64,000 nucleotides of DNA from a virus (lineage: Duplodnaviria; Caudoviricetes), in the IMG/VR virus record IMGVR_UViG_3300011560_000001, positions 32,001 to 96,000 of that record. One strand, written 5' to 3'. The notes beneath the pieces are model-generated. The model did not search any database and was not told where the DNA came from. It saw only the letters and a program-made list of their open reading frames with translations. A program made the translations under genes and the position numbers. Position 1 is the first letter of the stretch, and each line of letters starts with the position of its first letter. Positions 12,881-42,550 of this stretch are shown here, in pieces.

Positions 12881-15472
12881 ATGTATAACGGTAACAACAT
12901 ATACCAACAAATGGGCTATAGCGAGAACCCGTACGCAAGCACGGTTCGATTTGCAGCTGACCAGGTGCGTCAACAACAGTACCAGCAACCGCAATATCAA
13001 CAACCTCCGTACCAACCCCAGCAACCGGCTTATCCACAATACGGGGGCGGTTACCAACAACCACCGCAATACCAACCTAATCCAGCATATCAGCAGAACT
13101 ACCAGTTCATCACCAACGAAGGAAATATCGTCAAAATCCGTCAGGCTATCTTTAATGTCCTGAAAGAGCATGCCCAGCAAGACGATATTCAAACACAGTT
13201 CGTGGCACGTTACGCCAATAACAACGAGGCGATGGAGTCACTTGTTGAAGACTGCTGCTGGAACGTATTCTCTTACATCAACCCAGCACCTCAGAATGCT
13301 TCAGTCGATCAGATTATCGACACCGCGGTACGTACAACGATACTTATGCATCTTGTACAGTGGCTCTTTGAGGCCAATCAATATCCTGAGTATTATCGTG
13401 CAAAGGAATTAACGCGCATTAACCCGGAAGCAGCGAATAAGTACACACAACTGAATCAAGGTGGAACTCTGAGTCAAATCGCGCAGAAAACACGTGCGTT
13501 GAAATCGCAGGTAACGCAGTTGGGAATGACCTATCGCGGACCGCAAGCAAACGCGATGGTCAACACCGGATACGGTCAACCTCAACAACCTGTGTATAAC
13601 ACGTACGGTGGAGCTTATCCTCAACCGCAGTACCAACCTAATCCAGCGGTTATGCGTGGTATGGCTCCGACAATGCCAGGATACGGCACACAACCTCGAC
13701 CAACGGTTGTTCAGCAGCAAGCACCTTCGTATATGGATTCGAAGGAGTGTGCATTCAACCGTTTGTACGATGTTGGTGATGATGACCCAGTTGACGATAA
13801 ACCTGCTCCGGCAGCAACACGTCGGGAAGCACCACAAACGCGTATTTACTCAACCCATCCTGAAGGAGATATTGGTGGTATCAACGATATCTTTGCAGCG
13901 GCTGAGCAATTTGCTGAACAGTACGAAGAGCCAGAATGGCATGTTAAGGCTGGGCAGCAGAAACCCGTTCAACCTGAACCTGCGCAGGTGAAACCAGAAC
14001 CCGTTCGTACGGCTCGTTCTGCTACGGTAACAAAGACCGTTAATCCAATTGATGCGACCGAAGATGCTAAGCGTTACGGTCGTGTTGTTCAACATGAAGA
14101 ATTTATGCAGATGCGTCTGAAAGCCAAAGACTTTGCACCTAATAGTCGTTGGCCGACGTTGTATGACTTCAGGCACTTCGCTCGTCGGGCACGTATCGAC
14201 GAAAACGGAATTCTTCATGAAACCATTGTCGACATTACATCCCTCACGGAGGAAGAAGTGGAATACATCGAACTTGAATCAGACCCAACCGCTCGTCGTA
14301 TGGCAGAGCAGGAAATGGCAAAACTGGATCGTATCGCGCAAGCAGAAGTTGTTCGTGTTAGTCTTAACAAGCCTGTTCAGCGTGAACCAATCGTTGTCGG
14401 CGAGCAGCGCGAAATGAAACTGTTTACCGTCACCGATGCGATCGCAGCGTCAAGCGTTGAGGATGCTGAAACCAAAGCTTCAGTGGCGATCATTCAGCAG
14501 ACCAACACCGACGTCAACCAAAACGACGCATTAGCATTCCTGGCTACGGTCAATTCCTATCTGGGAACCTATACCGACAAAGAGCTGGATGCAATCCATG
14601 AATTCCTGGATGCTTTGTCTATTGATAAAGGTCGCAGCGACGATATCAAAGCTTATCGTCAGATCATGCAACAGTATCGAGATGTCATTCCTCTGCGTAT
14701 CTGGCATTTCCTGAACGATAGCATGACCAAAGACGTCAATAAGCTGATCAAACGTATCGTACCGAAGAACTTCTCTGAAACCACCATCTCTAGCTTCGTT
14801 GATGATATCGGAGAACTGTCCGGTTGGCTGATTCACGATCTTAAAATGGACCAGAAGTTCATTGAAGATGAATTCGCCAATTGCTACTACACCTGGGTCA
14901 ACATGCTGAAGTGTCTCTACTGCAATCGTGATGGCGAAGGTCAGTGGAACATTCGTCTTTCCATGGCTGAACTGTACAACATGCATGACTACCTGAAAGC
15001 CGCTCACGAAAAATCAGCAGCGAATCGTGAACGTCATCTGGTTGCCATGAGTGAGTATCGTGCAGAACTGGAGAAAGATGGCTCTCTGGATGCTGACGAA
15101 ATCGAACGTCGTTTGGCGGATGCGGCTACCGAAGACATGCGTGTTAATCCAGACATCGTCACTGACGAAGATAGCAACGATGCTTACTGGTTCAATCACA
15201 GCGTATTCGCGATGCGTCCGCATGTTGTTGTTCGCGTACCGACCAACGCCAAGATTCTGAAGCTGAACCAGAGCGGTTACACTCACGCATCGGCTGCAAC
15301 CAACCCAAGCATTGCTCGTATGCTGGATCAGGTGTTCAAGACCTTCGAAACCAAAGTAAAAGGTCTGCAATCTGTTACCGTGATTCTGAGTGATGATACT
15401 CGTCTGAAAGCAGTACGTACGGTAAACGGTATTACCGCTTCCGAGTACCTGCTGGAACGCGACGAACAGTAA
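12881..15472 (+). CDS. large conserved protein with Q/P/Y-rich low-complexity N-terminus
   Basis: 863 aa, AAGGA RBS, follows the nvRNAP subunit. Confidence 0.8.
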   Translation: MYNGNNIYQQMGYSENPYASTVRFAADQVRQQQYQQPQYQQPPYQPQQPAYPQYGGGYQQPPQYQPNPAYQQNYQFITNEGNIVKIRQAIFNVLKEHAQQDDIQTQFVARYANNNEAMESLVEDCCWNVFSYINPAPQNASVDQIIDTAVRTTILMHLVQWLFEANQYPEYYRAKELTRINPEAANKYTQLNQGGTLSQIAQKTRALKSQVTQLGMTYRGPQANAMVNTGYGQPQQPVYNTYGGAYPQPQYQPNPAVMRGMAPTMPGYGTQPRPTVVQQQAPSYMDSKECAFNRLYDVGDDDPVDDKPAPAATRREAPQTRIYSTHPEGDIGGINDIFAAAEQFAEQYEEPEWHVKAGQQKPVQPEPAQVKPEPVRTARSATVTKTVNPIDATEDAKRYGRVVQHEEFMQMRLKAKDFAPNSRWPTLYDFRHFARRARIDENGILHETIVDITSLTEEEVEYIELESDPTARRMAEQEMAKLDRIAQAEVVRVSLNKPVQREPIVVGEQREMKLFTVTDAIAASSVEDAETKASVAIIQQTNTDVNQNDALAFLATVNSYLGTYTDKELDAIHEFLDALSIDKGRSDDIKAYRQIMQQYRDVIPLRIWHFLNDSMTKDVNKLIKRIVPKNFSETTISSFVDDIGELSGWLIHDLKMDQKFIEDEFANCYYTWVNMLKCLYCNRDGEGQWNIRLSMAELYNMHDYLKAAHEKSAANRERHLVAMSEYRAELEKDGSLDADEIERRLADAATEDMRVNPDIVTDEDSNDAYWFNHSVFAMRPHVVVRVPTNAKILKLNQSGYTHASAATNPSIARMLDQVFKTFETKVKGLQSVTVILSDDTRLKAVRTVNGITASEYLLERDEQ

Positions 15473-15521
15473 TTGACGATGGGTATTGTTAACGCGATAC
15501 CCTAGTTGATAAGGAAACCCT

Positions 15522-15797
15522 ATGAGTCATTATAAACTCATTACTGTCCCGATGGACGCAAAGGACTTACGCGAAATCGTTTTAGCAACCGAAGCAATCC
15601 AAATGGATGCTGTACTGATGGCGTACGAACGTTACCAGCTTTTCCTTTCGGTAAACGCTACGGTAGCCCGTATGAAACAGAAGTACCAGGCTCAGCTAAC
15701 CGTAATCGACCAAGGTGCTGTGATCCCACCACACCCTAGTTGGCGCGTATTGCGAAGCAACCTCACCACAATTGAATCGTGGTTAACCTCGAGATAA
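15522..15797 (+). CDS. small hypothetical protein
   Basis: 91 aa with AAGGA RBS. Confidence 0.7.
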   Translation: MSHYKLITVPMDAKDLREIVLATEAIQMDAVLMAYERYQLFLSVNATVARMKQKYQAQLTVIDQGAVIPPHPSWRVLRSNLTTIESWLTSR

Positions 15798-29565: not shown

Positions 29566-32169
29566 ATGGCAATGAAAAAGTTCAGCGAACTGGTGAGTAG
29601 CGTTAATACGCGTATCGCTAGTCGCGACAACCCAACGGGACTAAAAGCGAGTGATCTTGGGGCCTACAGTACCGCTGAGTTCAACACCGAGATGGAAAAA
29701 TACATCGATATCAGCGTAACCGATATCGAACAGGTTGGGGACCAAAGTTATTTTCCTCTGGCAATTGAAGGCTCCGCCGATGGTGCTATCTCCCTAAACG
29801 ACAAATACCGTCGTTACGGCGTATGTCGTGAATCGGACGGTACCATCGTGTTATTGCGTTCAGCAACGAACAGCGTAAAGAAAGGGGTTTACTACGTTAT
29901 CTGTAAAACAGATCAAAACGGGCAAATCACCGAAGTTATCCCAACCAGTCGTCGTTATGAGCCCGCGACGCTCGATCGTATTCCTACGGTGATATACTGC
30001 CACCAGAACGGTATCATGTTAGGTCAAGCTGCTTTTGAAGACGGTAGCAGCCCTAAAATGTTTATCGCATTGACAGACGGAACGTTTGATGCATCCAAAC
30101 ACGTCGCCATGTATCTCGATGGTAGTCTTGCCAACTTTGTTGATACGTCACCGAATGTCTGCTGTTGGGAAATTAACGGTAAAATCTACATCGCTATTGC
30201 TGGCGCTAACAGTTATAAACTCTACTTAAATGTTTATACCGTAACTAAATCTTCCATCGGTCCCAGCGGTGGCAGCGTAGCGGCTACACAGCTTACGAAT
30301 ATTAGCGGTAGAACGATAGAAGGAACGGCGATAAGCAACAGCGCCGAGATGATTGTCTGCAACCGCATAACTGCGAACGATTTCCCTTCTGACGGGATCG
30401 GTCAAATCGTCTGGCGTGCTCAGATTCGTCTGCTCGCAGCAACCAAAGGCACTAAAGCACGCATTCTGATTGCTTCGGCGTGGTGGACGAACAACCGTAA
30501 CAACCGAGCTAAAAATGGGTTGCATCAGTTTTATCTGGATTTTGAAACCACCAACAACAGTTACAGCATGAACCCGGGCGCTGGACAATCGACTTACACG
30601 TCAACCAGCAGCGGTATTGACTGGATAGGACCTTCCAACACAACGGAGGGGACAAGCGCATATAACGATGGTTTCTGGCAATGGGGTTCGGGTAACGGTA
30701 CCGGGAATATCGAAATCAACGAACGTGGTCAGGTAGCCCTTATCCAAAACGACAACTTATCCGCCCCCCAAGCGAGATCGTACACCATCAAAGGTTTCTC
30801 TGGAAACGTGTTCGACGAACTCGCCAAACTCGGCCCGACCGGTGGAAGACAGTACGATTCAAACTGGAAAAGCGTCGGGGATCGCGTCGTTGGTGCGCTC
30901 GCGTCCCATGGTTACCTGGGTTTCTTTTCTAAAAACAAGGTTTTTGTTAACTCGCGTACGGCTGGCGGACAAGGTAATTTTGAGGCTCGTCTAGTGACCT
31001 ATGACTGGAACCTCAATTACCATTATCAGGGCGAGGGTATTAATGTTTACGGTTTTCCGCCTTCCAACAATGTGGTGGTTAGAACAGGTCAAACAGCGTT
31101 ACCTTTCCTAACCGTGCATTTAAGCGATGACAATACGGTGGTTAGCGGGTCTTATTTAACCGATGCGGTCCTAACAAGCAAAATCGGTTACGACGCAACC
31201 AAACTTGCACCATCCGGTGAAGCCATCAGCATAACCGCAGCGAATCTGCAGGCAGGCGGTCAGCTTGTGTGGAACGCATATACAGGATCTAAGTTATCAG
31301 GGGTAAGTCAATGGCGACATGCGTTAGCAGTGCCTCCAGATGGTACAAACGCGCCCTGTATCCTGTTTGTTGCTGGCTGTAATACCAGCACACGCGTACA
31401 TGGACGAATCGCTGCAGAGGTTACCGTATCCGCGCGTAAAGGTTCGATTACGGTGACGGGCGTAACCAAATTGCTGGGTTATGTCGAAGAACCCGATTCA
31501 ACAAATATCGGTAGTCAGGATGCTGCCTGGGGTGTATTAGCTTACAAGAAGGTGAGTGATGGATGGCTTGTTGCGGGACATGTTCCGTACTCCCGTCAGT
31601 CTGCAGGGAACCAGAACACATATCAGTTCCGAGCTGGGCGACAAAACGATGGGAACTGGACAACCATCGCATTTGAAGGTATGTATGCTTACCTACAGAC
31701 AAGCGGCTATCGCTGGAACGTACATCCGGTGTGGGGAATCGGTTATGTTGATACCGCCGTCTCTACGGTGATGGGTAATGGCGGGCAGGTCTTTAACGCT
31801 GTCGGTAATTCCGTTGCGGAATATACAGCCCTCGCTGTTAAAAATCGTTATATGGTTTCTACGGTCGTTGCCGCTTCCGGCTACGATATCTACGTCAACG
31901 AAGATATCACCTGCTTGTTTGCCGGTAAAGTCATGACCCTACCTAAAGGCCATTATAACCTAAAAGACTATAATAGCTCACCAGGTAATAAAACATGGTA
32001 CGTTTCCGTTGTTCCTAACGGTAACCAGTTAGAGCTGGAATTAACCATCCACAAGCAAGAGGATGATAAAGGACAGCGCGTTAATATCGGAACGATTACA
32101 ACCAGCGATACCCAGATCTCTGTCATCAATCTCAATAAGACAACCAAATTAGGTACAGTCACGTTATAA
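29566..32169 (+). CDS. large tail-fibre or receptor-binding protein
   Basis: 867 aa, beta-rich G/S/T/N composition; N-terminal RDNPTGLKASDLGA. Confidence 0.7.
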   Translation: MAMKKFSELVSSVNTRIASRDNPTGLKASDLGAYSTAEFNTEMEKYIDISVTDIEQVGDQSYFPLAIEGSADGAISLNDKYRRYGVCRESDGTIVLLRSATNSVKKGVYYVICKTDQNGQITEVIPTSRRYEPATLDRIPTVIYCHQNGIMLGQAAFEDGSSPKMFIALTDGTFDASKHVAMYLDGSLANFVDTSPNVCCWEINGKIYIAIAGANSYKLYLNVYTVTKSSIGPSGGSVAATQLTNISGRTIEGTAISNSAEMIVCNRITANDFPSDGIGQIVWRAQIRLLAATKGTKARILIASAWWTNNRNNRAKNGLHQFYLDFETTNNSYSMNPGAGQSTYTSTSSGIDWIGPSNTTEGTSAYNDGFWQWGSGNGTGNIEINERGQVALIQNDNLSAPQARSYTIKGFSGNVFDELAKLGPTGGRQYDSNWKSVGDRVVGALASHGYLGFFSKNKVFVNSRTAGGQGNFEARLVTYDWNLNYHYQGEGINVYGFPPSNNVVVRTGQTALPFLTVHLSDDNTVVSGSYLTDAVLTSKIGYDATKLAPSGEAISITAANLQAGGQLVWNAYTGSKLSGVSQWRHALAVPPDGTNAPCILFVAGCNTSTRVHGRIAAEVTVSARKGSITVTGVTKLLGYVEEPDSTNIGSQDAAWGVLAYKKVSDGWLVAGHVPYSRQSAGNQNTYQFRAGRQNDGNWTTIAFEGMYAYLQTSGYRWNVHPVWGIGYVDTAVSTVMGNGGQVFNAVGNSVAEYTALAVKNRYMVSTVVAASGYDIYVNEDITCLFAGKVMTLPKGHYNLKDYNSSPGNKTWYVSVVPNGNQLELELTIHKQEDDKGQRVNIGTITTSDTQISVINLNKTTKLGTVTL

Positions 32170-35959: not shown

Positions 35960-36853
35960 ATGACAGCTCAAGTATCACTTACTTTAAAAACACCTTGGCA
36001 ACTTATCGTTGATGAGATCAACACACTCAACGCCGACACTGGTGCCAACTTCAAACCCACCGACCTTAAATACGTTCTTAAATCCAAAAGCGATTCTGCT
36101 CCAGATGCAACTTTAACGCTTAGCCCTGGTGAAGGTACTCCTTACTTCAATGACCGCGATGTTACCTACCATCGTCTGGATCTGGCTAAGTGGTTCCAGA
36201 AGATCGCCGTACGTGTTAACGTTAATAAAAACACCACCATCGGTGATGTGGTTGACCTTGTAGCTCAACGCTACGGTATGATCACACCTTCCGGTGAGAA
36301 GTTCCTGGATAAAACGAAAGACATCAAAGCCGATACGTTAAATACGCCGGTTACCTTTGAGCAGTCGGGTATCCAGACGATCACTTTGGAAGCCAAAGAA
36401 GATTCGCTGGCTTGGTATGGTTCCGTTGAAGTTAAAGTTTATAACACCACGCTGGATCTGGCTAACATCATCAAGGTTACCAACCTGGGTAACTTAACCT
36501 ACGTTGATGAAGGCGATGGCACCAAGACCTCAGCGCGTCTGTTAACCTATCCGTTAGACTTCAGTACCTACACCACAGGCCTACAGGCGATCATCAGTGA
36601 TGAAACCAAGATCGATGAAACCCTGGCAGGTAACCTGACCACGCTGATCAAAGAGCAGACGGGTGTAAGTGATGATATCATCAATGAACTGAAAACCAAT
36701 CTGCAAACAGCTACCTTTGTCTATAACGGTGCTACCACCGGGTCTACCGACAAGGGCGTTAACGCTACGTACAGCAATGTGCTAGTGGTGTCGTTAACCG
36801 ACGGTACCCACACCTACGGTAAAGCCGTATTCGGTTATAACGTTTCCGAATAA
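35960..36853 (+). CDS. gp131-like paralogue E
   Basis: YHRLDL, YGM, SLAWYGSV, LANIIKVTNLGNLTY, then a C-terminal domain ending FVYNG...FGYN. Confidence 0.75.
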   Translation: MTAQVSLTLKTPWQLIVDEINTLNADTGANFKPTDLKYVLKSKSDSAPDATLTLSPGEGTPYFNDRDVTYHRLDLAKWFQKIAVRVNVNKNTTIGDVVDLVAQRYGMITPSGEKFLDKTKDIKADTLNTPVTFEQSGIQTITLEAKEDSLAWYGSVEVKVYNTTLDLANIIKVTNLGNLTYVDEGDGTKTSARLLTYPLDFSTYTTGLQAIISDETKIDETLAGNLTTLIKEQTGVSDDIINELKTNLQTATFVYNGATTGSTDKGVNATYSNVLVVSLTDGTHTYGKAVFGYNVSE

Positions 36854-36864
36854 TTTAATCTCTC

Positions 36865-36896
36865 CCTTCCTCCTTCCCTGTTGGGTTGGAGGAAGG
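36865..36896 (+). terminator. repeated hairpin element copy 7
   Basis: CCTTCCTCC-TT-CCC-TGTT-GGG-TT-GGAGGAAGG followed by TTTATG. Confidence 0.75.
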
Positions 36897-36959
36897 TTTA
36901 TGTTTGTGTTTATTCTTCTCTTTATATTTTCTAATGATAAGATTAAGTACCTGGAGTAA

Positions 36960-37500
36960 AAGTTTACAGATGTTGTAAATGTATTTGGAAAGTAAAATTT
37001 CCACGACCTCGGCCCCTTCGGGGGACGGGGGAGGAGCGAAGTCCTTTAGAGACGAGCAACAGGATAACTCTAAGAAAAAGAAAAACTAAACGAGCGAAGC
37101 GAGTTTATGTTTTTATCCTTAGAGTTATCAAGCTATAAGCGTAGCGTTAGCGTATAACGGTTATGTCGTATACGAATGCAATGAGTATAGACGAGATACT
37201 CTGATGAACAACGTGAAGAAGAGTATCACAAATGGTTTTTTTTTGAGTTATCCAACTTATAAGCTTATTAACTTAGTTTAAATATACAAACAAGATAAAT
37301 AAAACAACTTAAACATACCAAGATAAAACGATTAAACCATTAAGACATAACCTAAGATAAACAAGATAACATAGACAATACACTTTTAACAAACACAGAT
37401 AACATCTTACTTAAATCAAAATACCTATTCTCGTTTACCTTCCTTGAAACACCTCTTCTAAATCCATCCCTTCTTAAAACAAAACCCTTGCTTTAATGCA
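36960..37500. other. origin-like non-coding region: hairpin cluster plus G-poor A/C-rich tract with AAGATAA repeats
   Basis: Longest ORF-free stretch in the window; hairpins with GCGAAGC, GCGTAGC and GA-tandem motifs. Confidence 0.5.
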
Positions 37501-37505
37501 AATCC

Positions 37506-37530
37506 TTTCACGACTATATTACCTTCATGA
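37506..37530 (+). promoter_or_regulatory. putative early promoter
   Basis: TTTCACGACTATATTACCTTCATGA. Confidence 0.75.
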
Positions 37531-37652
37531 TGCCATGCATCATGAACGCGACGCGTAAGCGTTACCTTCATGATGCATACGTACAATGTTCGTATTGCGT
37601 CAAATAGAAATCAATACGTTGTTTAATTAACGTGAAACAGAGGATCTTTTAG

Positions 37653-38402
37653 ATGAACGATGAATTAATTTTTGATGTGGTGTTTATTGAACATGATTAT
37701 CTAACGTTGCCTGAAGCGGTGCAAGCAGAATGCGTGAAGGTTAAACGTTGGTGGAACGGTTCGGAAGGAAGCATGATCGAAGGGATGGATGGTGAGGTTG
37801 GACGGTTCCGTCAGCGGGGTTGTTGCATCGCCCATCCGGTAGACTTATCTGTGGTGCAGTTGCGTGCGCATAAGAGCCAGCATCCGCAACGGATGAGCGC
37901 AAGCGGACTACGAGTACTTGCGTCGGGAGAGCAGCTTGGGGACGCATGGTTGTATCCTACCGCGGATGCTTTGCCACGGTCGATGGTGGACGCAGCGAAT
38001 CAGGTTGTTGGGACGGTGTATAGCGGTGAAGTGCACAACGTATCAGGAGCACTCGAAAATGACGTACGCGCACTTCCTGGTTGGATCAATCATACCATCG
38101 GAACGTATTACACCAAGCGGCTGGAACGGGTTGCCTTATTCGTTGGCGAGGGTTCCGATAAGCTTTATCAGCAAAGACTGATGGTGCTTAAACGTTACTA
38201 CCCTCGGGTTATCCATCCTTTCGGTTACGCCTGGGTTAGCGAAGCGCGCTACAATCCCCGCAAACAACGCCTGGAAGCGAAGGTACTTAACGAACGTTGG
38301 CTACCTGTCATGCATCCTAGAGTTAGCGTTGATATCGCGCAGAAGATGCTTGAGAAAAGCAAGCTGGTATGCTGGGATGTGACTATGTTGCGCCATCCCT
38401 AA
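37653..38402 (+). CDS. hypothetical early protein
   Basis: 249 aa, GAGG RBS, first gene after the early promoter. Confidence 0.7.
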   Translation: MNDELIFDVVFIEHDYLTLPEAVQAECVKVKRWWNGSEGSMIEGMDGEVGRFRQRGCCIAHPVDLSVVQLRAHKSQHPQRMSASGLRVLASGEQLGDAWLYPTADALPRSMVDAANQVVGTVYSGEVHNVSGALENDVRALPGWINHTIGTYYTKRLERVALFVGEGSDKLYQQRLMVLKRYYPRVIHPFGYAWVSEARYNPRKQRLEAKVLNERWLPVMHPRVSVDIAQKMLEKSKLVCWDVTMLRHP

Positions 38403-38425: not shown

Positions 38426-38725
38426 ATGATACGTGCAACGGGATACGAAAACAAAGGGAAGAACAGCGTGCAGCGTTACGTTGCCGACGAGGAAGGGAAA
38501 GCAGAATACCTGGATTGGTTCGATCGCTACAGTGCAAGCAAGGTACGTGATCCTAGCATCCTACGGCTACAGAGCAGTTTTCAATGGCAGGCTTCCGAAC
38601 AACGCTGGTACATCACGTTGGAAATCGGAACGGTACGGGAAGACCAGCTTCCCGCATGCTTAAAAGAACAACGGGAGCAGATCAACACACTACTCGCACA
38701 ACACAAAACGGAACCTAAACCTTAA
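38426..38725 (+). CDS. hypothetical early protein
   Basis: AAGGAG RBS before ATG 38426. Confidence 0.7.
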   Translation: MIRATGYENKGKNSVQRYVADEEGKAEYLDWFDRYSASKVRDPSILRLQSSFQWQASEQRWYITLEIGTVREDQLPACLKEQREQINTLLAQHKTEPKP

Positions 38726-38765
38726 TCCAACACCAACAAGCGAAAAGGAAAATACAACAGAAATC

Positions 38766-39041
38766 ATGTTGATGAAACCGACAGCAAAGAACAAGGTTTA
38801 TAAAGCAATCTACGCGTCAGACACAGTCAGCCTGACGAAGATCATCAAATGCAAACTTGAGAAGGTGCTACGTGTTGAACCGAGCATAGGCTTAGTCCGT
38901 TATCGCCTGATTACCGAGAACGGTGAAGGGTATTACGCACCGTCGTCTCGAAGCGATAACGCCGTTATGTTAACCCGGGATGTGGTTGAAGCAATCAACA
39001 ACGGAACGAAGGCGTTCTACGCGCACAGAAAAGCCGTATAA
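38766..39041 (+). CDS. hypothetical basic early protein
   Basis: 91-aa ORF within the operon. Confidence 0.65.
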   Translation: MLMKPTAKNKVYKAIYASDTVSLTKIIKCKLEKVLRVEPSIGLVRYRLITENGEGYYAPSSRSDNAVMLTRDVVEAINNGTKAFYAHRKAV

Positions 39042-39118
39042 CGCAATAAACGAATCCAAAGAAGGGAAACTATACCTTAACTTAAAACGACGCTTAGAGA
39101 GCGTTACAGGAGCTTAGA

Positions 39119-39526
39119 ATGCAACATGATCAAACGAACACCACCGCAACGTCAATAGCCCTTGCCGATGCCGTCCAGGCGTGGAACGAGAACCCAGCCT
39201 GTCGAGCAAAGATGGAATTGGTGTACGAAGGATCAACCCGTGTCAGGACGGCTGATGACGTTCTGGTCGTACGAGGTGAATTCTTCGCCTTAGGTGTCAC
39301 GGACCGTGGTCCGTTAGATGCGCTTTGGATCGAGTTACAAACCTGCCCGCAGAGACCACGCTACGTGACCCGTGACCATCGTCCTGAGAACGCGTTAGTC
39401 GGAACCGGTTCCGTGGATATTTTCATCTGGCAGGATACCCTCGACAACATGAACAAGATCATCGATGTTGAGAACATCGTTGCAAATAAGTTAACCCAAC
39501 TTAAAGAACGTCTGATGCCGCTATAA
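39119..39526 (+). CDS. hypothetical early protein
   Basis: 135 aa, AGGAG RBS. Confidence 0.7.
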   Translation: MQHDQTNTTATSIALADAVQAWNENPACRAKMELVYEGSTRVRTADDVLVVRGEFFALGVTDRGPLDALWIELQTCPQRPRYVTRDHRPENALVGTGSVDIFIWQDTLDNMNKIIDVENIVANKLTQLKERLMPL

Positions 39527-39539
39527 CGCATCAACATCA

Positions 39540-39569
39540 CCCGCCTGTACCCCATCGGGTACAGGCGGG
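39540..39569. promoter_or_regulatory. perfect 13-bp intergenic hairpin
   Basis: CCCGCCTGTACCC-CATC-GGGTACAGGCGGG; a second small hairpin GGGGAC/GTCCCC follows. Confidence 0.6.
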
Positions 39570-39638
39570 GCAATAAGAAACCAAGGGGACATCGCCGTCC
39601 CCGTTACTATCATCAACCACTATCAAGAGGAACCTACC

Positions 39639-40082
39639 ATGGAAATTAAATTCTGTAAATCGATCGCGATTGTACCTGAACAACCTGCGGATGATCTCGA
39701 AAAGCTCGATCATCCCACACTGCAACATGCGCTGGAACGTTTAGCCTCTTTTGCGCCGTTAGAGAATCATCTTCACTGCGTTAATCTTGAAGCATCCGAC
39801 TTCGATGTGAAGCTTGGGTTCGTGTTTTCACAAACGGGGAAGGATGTGTTAGAAAACATATTCTGGTCTGCTGAGCATAAGGCGAGAAATGTGATGGCGA
39901 AGTTAGTTTATAACGTTAGCCTTAGTGAAGACGGCACCTATTGGACGTCAGAGGCTTGCTGGACGATTTCTGCGATTTCACGAATGGACAAAATACACTA
40001 TTTGCATCGTGTTGCTGATAGCATTGTACACCAACTGGATCGTTTTGATACCACCCGCTTATCGAATGGAACACAGTGTTAA
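39639..40082 (+). CDS. hypothetical early protein, tandem paralogue 1
   Basis: LGFVFSQTGKDVLE...EDGTY....CW. Confidence 0.75.
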   Translation: MEIKFCKSIAIVPEQPADDLEKLDHPTLQHALERLASFAPLENHLHCVNLEASDFDVKLGFVFSQTGKDVLENIFWSAEHKARNVMAKLVYNVSLSEDGTYWTSEACWTISAISRMDKIHYLHRVADSIVHQLDRFDTTRLSNGTQC

Positions 40083-40097
40083 TACGAGGAATCGAAC

Positions 40098-40523
40098 ATG
40101 AAAATTAAATGGCCTAAATCAGTCGCCGAAGAGTGTATCGGTGAGTATAGCTCATCGGTTACCGAGCATACGCGGTTACATCACACGTTATTGCTTTTAC
40201 GTGAAGACGCCAAACTCCGCAAACATATTCAACCGATATCAGCAACCTACTGTAAAACGTCATCGTACCTGTACTCTTCCCGGTTAACATTTGCTTGCAC
40301 TGCGTTAGGGAAAGTATTGCTAGAATCCGCATATCTTCGTAGTTGCGAGAACATGAAATTGACGGGTGGTATGGTACTCTCAATCGATGTGCTTTGTTTG
40401 GACGATGGAACACATAAACCCCAGCTTGTGTGGGAAGTATATGGATTGAACCCAGCCATGATTAAGACGAAGTTCGACTGGATTACTGACGGTCTTAATG
40501 AGATTCTGAAAGAAGGAATTTGA
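40098..40523 (+). CDS. hypothetical early protein, tandem paralogue 2
   Basis: LTFACTALGKVLLE...DDGTH...LVW. Confidence 0.75.
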   Translation: MKIKWPKSVAEECIGEYSSSVTEHTRLHHTLLLLREDAKLRKHIQPISATYCKTSSYLYSSRLTFACTALGKVLLESAYLRSCENMKLTGGMVLSIDVLCLDDGTHKPQLVWEVYGLNPAMIKTKFDWITDGLNEILKEGI

Positions 40524-40524
40524 T

Positions 40525-40887
40525 ATGCAACAACGTATCGGTTTATCGTTAGCTATTGACCGACTGATCAAAGTCTCATCGTTGCGAAGTGAATTTGTTG
40601 GCGTCCGTGAAGAAGCTGCGAATAATCGCTTTATTTTAACGTTTACGTGTACCAAGAAAGGCGTGACGGTTATCCGTGATGTTTGGAGTGCTGTGAACAA
40701 ACGCGAGGCCCGTTGTTCTACATCTGTCGTTGATTACAAAAACCTGGATAATACGTACACTATCCGTTTAGAATGGGAGCATCGCCTCAGGACATTTGTT
40801 GAAGTTCGGTCGAAGCTGTTAGCTGAATTGTTGAACGAAGCCTGTCTACGTGACGAGAACGCTACAGAACTCTTCAGAACGCTTTAA
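40525..40887 (+). CDS. hypothetical early protein, tandem paralogue 3
   Basis: LTFTCTKKGVTVIR...LDNTY...LEW. Confidence 0.75.
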   Translation: MQQRIGLSLAIDRLIKVSSLRSEFVGVREEAANNRFILTFTCTKKGVTVIRDVWSAVNKREARCSTSVVDYKNLDNTYTIRLEWEHRLRTFVEVRSKLLAELLNEACLRDENATELFRTL

Positions 40888-40992
40888 TTCAATCTTAGAT
40901 AAGGAAACCCCTTAGAAATTAAAACAAACTGTTATACGTCGTTCTGTGACGTTTAAGCTATACATTGAACTCATTGTAATCGAGGAAAGAAA

Positions 40993-41382
40993 ATGTTAAA
41001 TTCAACTTTTACCCACTATCTCCACACCTATGCAAAATTATGCTGTGTTGATATGGAAGAGCTGGCGAACGATAATAGTGTTCGCGATTGTGAGATGCTC
41101 CCTAAGCGACAAGGTTTTCTACCTGGTTCGCGGTCAGCGGCGTTCTTCTTAATCGCTTACTTCATCGTTAGTCATAGTGCGGCGCTGTTGAGCCAAACCA
41201 AGAAACAGCGAAAGGATTACGCTACCGCAATCACTCAAGTCTATTTCGATCGTCTTCACGGACGTGCGGTGAGTATCGATACCGCGTTAACGACCGCGTT
41301 TCGTCATCGAGGCGCAACCGCTGTACAGATACCCGCTTTGGTTAAGATCGGAAAAGAAATCATCCAGAATGCAACGCGTTAA
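40993..41382 (+). CDS. hypothetical protein
   Basis: 129 aa, GAGG RBS. Confidence 0.7.
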   Translation: MLNSTFTHYLHTYAKLCCVDMEELANDNSVRDCEMLPKRQGFLPGSRSAAFFLIAYFIVSHSAALLSQTKKQRKDYATAITQVYFDRLHGRAVSIDTALTTAFRHRGATAVQIPALVKIGKEIIQNATR

Positions 41383-41397
41383 TAAATAAACTATAAT

Positions 41398-41432
41398 CCT
41401 CCTTCCCCGGCCTTGACGGCTAGGGAAGGAGG
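41398..41432. terminator. repeated hairpin element copy 8 (convergent junction)
   Basis: CCTCCTTCCC-CG-GCC-TTGAC-GGC-TA-GGGAAGGAGG. Confidence 0.7.
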
Positions 41433-41461
41433 TTGTATTGCATTTCTTTTTTTTCTTCTGT

Positions 41462-42550
41462 TTATTGGAACGGGTCTGTACGACCGCTACCACGATCTAC
41501 ACCACCGTGATCGTGGGTGTATACGTTTGTTCCGGTTGGTGAACGCCAAGAGCCTGCGATGTGTACGAAGTTCCCATTCAACGTCATCGTGTTTCCGTCT
41601 TCACCTGTGAAGCTTACAGCTCCAGTGAATACCGTATTCGGACATTTAAACGTGGTCTGTCCTGATACTTGCGCGGTGTAGCGATCACACTTCAAAGAAA
41701 CATTCTGACTCGTAACGCTTTCTGTTTTGCTGGTACGTTCAAAGTTCTCACATTCGGTATAAATGTTTTTTGCTTTCATTCGGATATCGTTCTTAGCGAT
41801 TGCTTTGAGCGTATCCTCGCACTGGAATGTGATGTTCTTTTTTGTCACGTCGATAATGCTGTCGTCCTGGTTTTGGTATCGCAGCATATGCTCGACAAAA
41901 TGGAGCAATAGTAGGTTTTGATGGACGCTGTCCGCAACCTGTAAGTAACCCTCGTCCAGATTAAGTTCCATGTAGACTTGGGTAACTTCACCAAGCTGTG
42001 CGCTTGTACCGATAACCGCTTTCTTAAGAAAGGTATCAACCATTAGGTAATAGCAGTCTTCCGTTGAAATCGATTTACGGTCCTTCTTAGCGCTAGGACG
42101 TGCGCTGACGGTGAGGATAACCGATTCCATGGTCATCAGCTCACTATCCCCTCCTTTGGGCTGCCAATAGAGTTGTTCTTCATCAGCAGTACGCCAGACC
42201 ACCACACGCTGACCTTTCCTCAAGTTAGGTGCCGTCATCCGGTTGCTACCAAAGGGTAACCAGTAACACTGTACGCTGGTTGTTGTTGCCGCTTTTGCCG
42301 TATAGCTGTTCCCTTGAGCGTCTGTTGCACTAACTTCTTTAACGCTTCCCGCCGCTTCAACTTTCCCATCAGCGCCTGACATCATCTCATCAAGAAAGAC
42401 CTCCAGCGCCTGGTTAGGATCTTCCTCCAGACTTTTATTGGAAAAGTCGGCCGCAACGGTACCCAAGGCAAAGATACGAAAAACGCTTACGTTGCTGTCT
42501 GGAGCTAACTGACTCCCTTTTGTGTGATTGTCTGTTGCCAGGTCGCTCAT
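41462..42550 (-). CDS. baseplate central spike (gpV/gp138-like; phiKZ gp164-like)
   Basis: N-terminal OB-like W.P..SNRMTAPNLRKGQRV, beta-helical middle, C-terminal THDHGGVDRG..RTDP metal-binding tip. Confidence 0.8.
   Translation of the reverse strand: MSDLATDNHTKGSQLAPDSNVSVFRIFALGTVAADFSNKSLEEDPNQALEVFLDEMMSGADGKVEAAGSVKEVSATDAQGNSYTAKAATTTSVQCYWLPFGSNRMTAPNLRKGQRVVVWRTADEEQLYWQPKGGDSELMTMESVILTVSARPSAKKDRKSISTEDCYYLMVDTFLKKAVIGTSAQLGEVTQVYMELNLDEGYLQVADSVHQNLLLLHFVEHMLRYQNQDDSIIDVTKKNITFQCEDTLKAIAKNDIRMKAKNIYTECENFERTSKTESVTSQNVSLKCDRYTAQVSGQTTFKCPNTVFTGAVSFTGEDGNTMTLNGNFVHIAGSWRSPTGTNVYTHDHGGVDRGSGRTDPFQ

Follow-up and report, generated by a model that had tools for sequence, protein, structure and literature searches.

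A near-invariant row of hairpins in a Goslar-like jumbo phage as a candidate gene for a structured non-coding RNA

Introduction

What is the role of a near-invariant row of hairpins that lies between the genes of a nucleus-forming jumbo phage? We addressed this question for a stretch of 64,000 nucleotides (nt), comprising positions 32,001 to 96,000 of the IMG/VR virus record IMGVR_UViG_3300011560_000001 and hereafter called the window. It is part of a 237,533-base pair (bp) record that represents a Goslar-like chimallivirus, i.e. a nucleus-forming jumbo phage of E. coli. Around the element under study, which extends from about position 36988 to 37244 on the + strand, the window shares 92% identity with Escherichia phage vB_EcoM_Goslar, whose counterpart is located at about 15430-15720 of NC_048170, on the reverse strand of that record. 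Goslar serves as a laboratory model of nucleus-forming phages, and no function has yet been assigned to any of its non-coding DNA; a literature search retrieved no description of a Goslar non-coding RNA. An initial annotation of the region had pointed out a cluster of hairpins in the style of single-stranded DNA (ssDNA) and proposed a strand-specific replication origin, a primosome site or a packaging signal. Our analysis suggests a different answer, namely that the element probably encodes a discrete non-coding RNA of ~240-260 nt with a high degree of structure.

Results

A slowly evolving non-coding block with sharp borders

The block at 36956-37235 is single-copy, non-coding and near-invariant in 16 related genomes, which include the window and another 15 Goslar-like copies retrieved from IMG/VR, metagenomes and assemblies and show model scores of 277-305 bits throughout. 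Variable columns (24 of 235 among the 16 copies) are concentrated in two hairpins, H1 and H5 (Table 1), and at a few linker positions. In a MAFFT alignment of 10 genomes, on which the analysis of pairwise differences and borders was based, the mean pairwise difference amounts to 0.004-0.054 across 36945-37243, as compared to ~0.11 for the gene upstream and 0.3-0.45 for the DNA directly past the T-run at the end of the element. Evolution of the element is thus several-fold slower than that of the adjacent structural gene and more than 10-fold slower than that of the spacer behind it. On the right, identity collapses exactly at the T-run in all 10 aligned genomes, where indels reach up to 83 nt. 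At the left edge, the T-rich segment 36903-36937 past the terminator of the upstream gene is variable, and strong conservation sets in at about 36938-36956. Owing to mosaicism, some coding blocks elsewhere are likewise 99-100% identical; however, the sharp, function-shaped borders in the 10 aligned genomes favour constraint over a recent swap. The element is almost certainly important for the phage. Three small open reading frames (ORFs), one of 19 codons following the terminator and two of 13 and 16 codons inside the element, were dismissed as genes, as they are frameshifted or non-synonymously changed in relatives.

The + strand forms a series of hairpins

The initial annotation had listed six hairpins on the + strand of this block (H1 to H6; Table 1). 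All of them are present, and a complementarity check of the sequence showed every listed pair to be correct. H3 was recovered in all folds, irrespective of whether RNA or DNA parameters were applied. Its cap and H5 are near-duplicate modules of the general form UAWAC-GA-NN-GNA-NN-GA-GUWUA. Thus, while the G.A mismatches had been described as recurring in three unrelated stems, and the G.A steps do exist, the H3 cap and H5 are sisters rather than independent cases. Each of the four tandem G.A steps forms a symmetric internal loop that lacks a bulge, and H6 includes the sequence CUGAUGA...GAA. When both strands of the 237.5-kb genome were searched for the strict module (at least 5 bp, GA, 2 bp, triloop, 2 bp, GA), three instances were obtained, two of which fall inside the element, 82 nt apart; a loose version of the G.A/triloop motif showed no genome-wide enrichment (60 observed versus 58 in shuffles).

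Table 1. Features of the element and of its left border, in window coordinates
Feature	Position	Strand	Description
Intrinsic terminator of the upstream DUF7941 fibre gene	36868-36902	+	Hairpin (36868-36898) followed by TTATG; left border of the unit, outside the putative RNA body
GTAAAAGTTTAC motif	36956-36967	+	Promoter-like (or operator-like); invariant in all 16 relatives
Predicted 5' hairpin	36987-37002	+	GGAAA-GUAAAA-UUUCC; from RNA fold; invariant in the 10-genome MAFFT alignment
H1	37007-37030	+	9-bp GC hairpin with cUUCGg loop, one G.U pair and one G.A mismatch
H2	37032-37045	+	AGGA-G-C-GAA-G-UCCU, GAA triloop; invariant in 16 copies
H3	37063-37129	+	12-bp base, A/U middle, cap UAAAC-GA-GC-GAA-GC-GA-GUUUA
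AGCGU repeats (three)	37138-37153	+	Two TAGCGT (37142-37153); include mini-hairpin H4
H4	37139-37145	+	Mini-hairpin GC-GUA-GC (GC-GNA-GC type)
H5	37165-37192	+	GUC-G-UAUAC-GA-AU-GCA-AU-GA-GUAUA-GAC; sister of the H3 cap
H6	37195-37227	+	8-bp stem, GA/AG, U-A, GA/AG, 2 bp, AAC loop; invariant in 16 copies
Tail, CACAAAUG(G) then T-run	37228-37244	+	9 T here, 5-6 T in relatives; putative 3' end

The linker between H2 and H3 carries the sequence UUUAGAG (37045-37051), a near-copy of the CUUAGAG in the 3' strand of H3 (37118-37124). It could compete with the latter for CUCUAAG (37068-37074), and this arrangement, in which all three segments are invariant, would be compatible with a conformational switch.

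Folded as RNA, the + strand of 37000-37236 reaches -75.7 kcal/mol (z = -5.4, with none of 200 shuffles as good), compared to -62.4 kcal/mol (z = -3.6) for the - strand. DNA parameters yielded z-scores of -4.05 (+ strand) and -3.4 (- strand), so that the best value of the four foldings is that of the + strand as RNA. Two alternative helices were rejected. A long-range helix between GGAUAACUC (37062) and GAGUUAUCC past the T-run is part of the minimum-energy fold, but its 3' partner is unconserved. A rival long hairpin at 37133-37190 (model B) displays no two-sided changes and breaks in three relatives, with three broken cells, an indel in L048 and an A.G at 37142-37181 in L065.

Sequence changes in H1 and H5 preserve pairing

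Among the 16 copies, the H1 pair 37008-37029 is C-G in 10, U.G in five and U-A in one, and the adjacent pair 37009-37028 is U.G in 10 and C-G in six. In the most diverged copy (L048), the G.A mismatch of H1 is replaced by U-A and the UUCG loop by CGAA. Likewise, the H5 pair 37177-37181 is either U-A or C-G, its neighbour 37176-37182 is A-U, G.U or G-C, and the H5 loop reads GCA or GAA. In H4, the loop changes from GUA to GAA (U37142 = A) in L065 and L069, such that it stays GNA and the first TAGCGT becomes AAGCGT. H3 lacks its closing G-C pair in four copies and is otherwise invariant.

Overall, standard pairs account for 98.4% of the pair cells. Two-sided changes occur in seven cells, as opposed to 2.7 in shuffles, with one of 500 shuffles reaching seven, and in a control with slid partners, pairing falls to 36-52%. 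An independent MAFFT alignment gave the same covariation result. Every distinct sequence keeps a G.U pair in H1 or H5, and G.U appears as an intermediate both between A-U and G-C and between C-G and U-A. Selection on structure, as asserted by the initial annotation, is therefore borne out by the compensatory and wobble changes in H1 and H5 and by the GNA triloops, which retain their G and A. The covariation in relatives that it had proposed as a check was detected for these two hairpins; H2, H3, H4 and H6 are without informative variation. It was also right in stating that the pairings work on one strand only, because on the other strand, the G.U and G.A pairs turn into C.A and pyrimidine mismatches. 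This strand specificity fits either an RNA or a folded + DNA strand.

Transcription signals surround the conserved block

The terminator hairpin of the upstream fibre gene belongs to a family of the form CCCTCCTCCTTCCC-N4-GGGTTGGAGGAGGG, which has nine near-identical copies in the genome, most of them followed by T(T)ATG. In phiKZ, the terminator motif consists of a hairpin followed by TTAT (10.1101/2023.10.13.562163), and given this architecture, transcription of the fibre gene should stop at 36868-36902. TATG also represents the core of phiKZ late promoters (PMC7618050). As a separate observation, the 3' arm of the terminator together with the ATG resembles a ribosome-binding site with a start codon; the short ORFs behind it are unconserved.

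The GTAAAAGTTTAC motif upstream of the element occurs four times in exact form in this genome and another four times in Goslar, with ~0.1 expected and none found for a reversed control pattern. All copies are intergenic, and two of them sit 58 and 200 nt upstream of co-oriented genes. The middle promoters of phiKZ contain an AT-rich motif near position -24 (PMC7598289). By virtue of its resemblance to these sites, GTAAAAGTTTAC may act as a promoter, and the same analogy places the predicted transcription start near 36988, at the foot of the 5' hairpin and ~22-24 nt past the motif.

A diverged unit in a distant relative

A diverged version of the unit is found at 1985-2262 of L064, a distant relative whose fibre protein is 54% identical. 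There, GTAAGAGTTTACAG is followed by AATGTATT, and the GTAAAAGTTTAC motif is spelled GTAAGAGTTTAC and lies at an unchanged distance of 51 nt from the first GC hairpin. This H1-like hairpin (CCUG-A-CCCG-AUUC-CGGG-G-CAGG) occupies the same place with a different spelling. The body consists of ~240 nt of purine-rich non-coding sequence that ends in a canonical terminator; its fold has a z-score of only -2.3, and past the first ~100 nt, which hold the motif and the H1-like hairpin, there is no recognisable homology to the element. Being a singleton, the L064 unit gives no covariation. Two relatives identified through gp22 (L063 and L067; 51% identity) have a different gene order, and the element is absent at this spot.

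Beyond these genomes, homology searches were negative. A search of the window against Rfam 15 at gathering thresholds gave no match, and over 36800-37700, with E-values of up to 10, it gave only a chance 17-bit match over the terminator. ARAGORN called no tRNA or tmRNA genes in the window. Model R1, searched at E-values of up to 10 against eight other chimallivirus genomes (two Derbicusvirus, Erskinevirus, PCH45, pEa_SNUABM_54, Machinavirus, PA7 and OMKO1), produced nothing beyond 7-bit chance matches. Pattern scans of IMG/VR matched only Goslar and one other genome; another 38 matches of a 17-mer were discarded as chance, the flanking stems being absent. Blastn searches against complete E. 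coli genomes and plasmids yielded nothing, and distant blastn searches against phages recovered Goslar and, beyond it, just an AT-rich 44-mer in phiKZ-like phages that was attributed to chance.

Genomic context

The element is located in a 799-nt gap without genes (36854-37652), the second-largest of the genome when ORFs of at least 60 codons are considered. The larger gap, beyond the window, carries a group I intron: a group I intron-like RNA at about 1028-1548 of G000:C1 (729-1249 of L074, - strand) matches Rfam RF00028 with 47 bits (gathering score 50; E = 2e-10). Upstream of the element lies the DUF7941 virion fibre gene (35960-36853, + strand), and downstream a hypothetical gene (37653-38402, + strand), the first in a block of small genes without a family match. 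All neighbouring genes are co-oriented with the element. Of 10 neighbouring proteins compared with Pfam, only the endolysin and the DUF7941 protein gave matches, and a PHROGs search of eight of these 10 gave none.

The hypothetical gene at 37653-38402 is a hypervariable early gene that adjoins an invariant block: its product shares 43% identity with its Goslar counterpart, and the genes at ~38450-41500 are 99-100% identical at the DNA level. The tract between the element and this gene (37262-37500) is G-poor and A/C-rich, contains AAGATAA(A/C) repeats and represents the least conserved DNA of the region, with the copy number and spacing of the repeats varying among close relatives and indels of 8-83 nt. 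It is followed, at 37510-37600, by an early-promoter-like ACGACTATATTACC(T) and a leader hairpin TACCTTCATGATG, in a segment that shows a 44-nt leader duplication here, which is absent from Goslar and L003. Sites similar to ACGACTATATTACC(T) are found at genome positions 95177 and 232860.

Discussion

Our results identify a block of non-coding DNA whose + strand has been kept in a hairpin-forming state with hardly any change in sequence. Several of its properties favour an RNA as the acting molecule, including the cUUCGg loop, the G.U pairs that are both kept and used as stepping stones, and the superior z-score of the + strand when folded as RNA. The surroundings favour the same reading, as the element is co-oriented with the neighbouring genes, follows a terminator and a recurrent intergenic GTAAAAGTTTAC motif and loses its conservation at the T-run. 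The L064 unit, with the same motif and spacing, an H1-like hairpin and a canonical terminator at its end, appears to lend further support. There is also a precedent in phiKZ, which produces many short intergenic and 5' untranslated region (UTR) RNAs, some of them confirmed by northern analysis (10.1101/2023.10.13.562163). We class the element as a new RNA-like family within the phage-encoded structured non-coding RNAs, without a homologue in the eight other chimalliviruses searched.

If the element is indeed an RNA gene, a phage RNA polymerase may start ~20-25 nt past GTAAAAGTTTAC, just beyond the fibre-gene terminator. Co-transcriptional folding would then give rise to a row of independent hairpins, the 5' hairpin followed by H1 to H6, which could be locked by unusually stable motifs, namely the cUUCGg loop, the C(GNA)G triloops and the tandem sheared G.A pairs, and the 3' end of the RNA would lie at the U-run or be trimmed to it. 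H1 and H5 appear to be mainly structural struts, since they tolerate compensated changes, whereas invariance extends to the loop bases in H2, H3 and H6 and also covers the AGCGU repeats and the linkers, as expected if a partner reads these parts in a sequence-specific manner. The most likely partner would be a protein of phage (or host) origin bound to the twin UAWAC-GA-NN-GNA-NN-GA-GUWUA modules, with the RNA serving as a scaffold or decoy in a ribonucleoprotein. In this case, the twin G.A/GNA modules and the AGCGU repeats of this new RNA family would provide a handle for its RNA-binding partner, which would be of interest in a system in which RNA has to pass through a protein shell.

Several points weigh against an RNA gene. 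GNA triloops, including C(GAA)G, and tandem G.A pairs are at least as typical of stable DNA mini-hairpins as they are of RNA, and the near-total invariance of loops and linkers would also suit a DNA site. The compensatory and wobble changes by which structured RNAs under selection are generally recognised were found for H1 and H5 only; as four of the six hairpins (H2, H3, H4 and H6) show no pair variation, covariation supports just these two. Moreover, the H5 pair 37172-37186 changes from A-U to G.G in L072, the one violation among the copies, and the second G.A step of H5 becomes C.A in four copies. With regard to transcription, one of the GTAAAAGTTTAC copies is antisense to a gene, and the motif could be an operator given that its arms are palindromic. 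The T-run is no canonical intrinsic terminator, because 8-9 nt separate it from H6, and a promoter and terminator scan of the + strand called zero sigma-70 promoters and zero intrinsic terminators. As to the G.G in L072 (2646-2880), the pair may be genuine and non-canonical, or else the Logan contig may contain an assembly error.

Could the + strand instead act as folded ssDNA, providing a strand-specific origin, a site of priming or primosome assembly or a signal for packaging? Its hairpins are strand-specific and under selection, its DNA-parameter fold is significant (z = -4.05), GCGAAGC-type mini-hairpins, GNA triloops and tandem G.A pairs are very stable in DNA, and two TAGCGT hexamers are present. 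However, none of this points to DNA over RNA, and several features favour RNA. The d(cTTCGg) loop has no special stability in DNA, unlike its RNA form. H1 retains a T.G mismatch in 15 of its 16 copies, and G.T also appears as an intermediate in H5. The resemblance of the two TAGCGT hexamers to the CS-6 motif of the plasmid origin ssoA is not shared by all copies, the first hexamer being lost in L065 and L069 (two of the 16 relatives), and the hexamers overlap a 2-bp mini-hairpin instead of the terminal loop of a long stem. The ssoA setting of a Rep gene and a double-strand origin was not found in this replicon, a 237.5-kb chimallivirus, and there is no rolling-circle plasmid context, with the neighbouring proteins showing no match to such a family. 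The cumulative GC skew of the whole genome, which the initial annotation had suggested as a check, is flat over 0-70 kb and then rises steadily, following gene orientation; it has no minimum, maximum or inflection at the element (genome position 69 kb). Putative DnaA boxes were discarded, with TTATCCAAC in the window corresponding to TTATCCGAT in Goslar. In addition, the borders of the element coincide with transcription signals. Chimalliviruses lack an identifiable primase, and their replication takes place within a protein shell (PMC13648698). An assembly site for host DnaG/PriA is therefore unlikely; host primosome proteins would not be expected inside the phage nucleus. Taken together, we consider a function as folded ssDNA improbable. 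Even less credence, in our opinion, is due to a duplex DNA regulatory region whose inverted repeats bind a phage DNA-binding protein without any folding. The extreme invariance, which includes loops and linkers, and the palindromic GTAAA/TTTAC motif that recurs in intergenic DNA would be in line with such a region; however, duplex recognition has no need for compensatory and wobble changes, the strand asymmetry (G.U and G.A on the + strand only) would be meaningless in a duplex, and 240 nt is very long for an operator.

Other scenarios accept a transcript but assign it a role in cis. In one of them, the structured RNA, through its 3' part or by read-through into the A/C-rich AAGATAA tract, forms a persistent R-loop from which the phage RNase H-clamp (Rhc) makes a primer, so that the element is part of a transcript-primed origin. 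No origin is known for these phages, which lack an identifiable primase, and RNA-DNA hybrids have been proposed as initiation sites (PMC13648698). The element is single-copy, adjoins the most repeat-laden, G-poor non-coding DNA of the region and has G-clusters near the predicted RNA 5' end. Nevertheless, we regard this origin as unlikely, since the A/C-rich tract is the least conserved DNA of the region, with large indels between close relatives, the GC skew has no inflection at this position, and the G-clusters are paired within H1. A more far-reaching proposal is that the element constitutes the missing replication-initiation device of nucleus-forming phages, i.e. a primer RNA that functions analogously to ColE1 RNA II and whose hybrid with the adjacent, unwinding-prone tract is cut by the phage RNase H-clamp to prime DNA synthesis; we see it as a long shot. 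Any true link of the element to replication would bear directly on how Goslar starts and primes its DNA synthesis. Alternatively, the element could be a cis-acting leader: it would then form the structured 5' portion of a longer transcript, of the middle or late class, that continues past the T-run into the downstream early-gene block, and it might stabilise this transcript, mark a site of processing or provide a put-like anti-termination signal. The stretch from the element to the gene at 37653 contains no canonical phage terminator, the T-run has no hairpin next to it, and many phiKZ short RNAs are 5'UTR-derived products of conditional termination (10.1101/2023.10.13.562163). Then again, ~270-400 nt of fast-evolving spacer and a separate early-promoter-like ACGACTATATTACC (37510) precede the gene, and the gene is hypervariable whereas the element is invariant, leaving a leader function with only a small share of the probability. 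A discrete RNA gene thus remains the interpretation we favour.

Relation to known systems

At the level of individual motifs, part of H6 (37201-37217) is reminiscent of the hammerhead core and the box C/D kink-turn, as it combines CUGAUGA, a 2-bp helix, GAA and tandem sheared G.A pairs. However, H6 is a simple hairpin that lacks the three-way junction and the cleavage-site strand of a hammerhead and has a G in place of A15.1, and it also lacks the 3-nt bulge of a kink-turn; the Rfam hammerhead and snoRNA models gave no match even at E = 10.

Single-strand initiation signals include the complementary-strand origins of G4 and phiX174, plasmid ssi sites and ssoA with its CS-6 motif. The element shares with them a strand-specific cluster of hairpins, GCGAAGC-like mini-hairpins and the TAGCGT hexamer. 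It differs in that it resides in a double-stranded DNA jumbo phage that replicates in a protein-bounded compartment, has neither Rep nor a double-strand origin and does not carry CS-6 in all copies, while its cUUCGg loop and the G.U pairs it has kept point to RNA. Transcript-primed origins are represented by ColE1 RNA II, oriF and oriG of T4 and the primary origin of T7. The combination of a promoter-like site, a potentially structured transcript and an easily unwound AT-rich tract is common to these origins and the element, and chimalliviruses combine the lack of an identifiable primase with an essential RNase H (PMC13648698). In contrast to these origins, however, the AT-rich tract next to the element is poorly conserved, and a skew signal is absent.

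The pRNA of phi29 and the species 1 and 2 RNAs of T4 are stable structured phage RNAs that form part of ribonucleoproteins. Like them, the element would specify a phage RNA with several hairpins and sequence-constrained loops and a length of at most a few hundred nucleotides; it differs from them in its genome context and has no homology to them, no known partner and no link to a packaging motor. Homology is likewise absent for the short RNAs of phiKZ, with model R1 finding no match in the phiKZ-like phages PA7 and OMKO1. The putative RNA would exceed these RNAs in length, and the element is much better conserved than the DNA around it and devoid of a canonical terminator at its end. What it has in common with the phiKZ RNAs described by ONT-cappable-seq and Grad-seq (10.1101/2023.10.13.562163, 10.1101/2020.12.06.403469) is its origin in a chimallivirus and the character of a short (70-200 nt in phiKZ), structured, intergenic unit that would have its own start and end.

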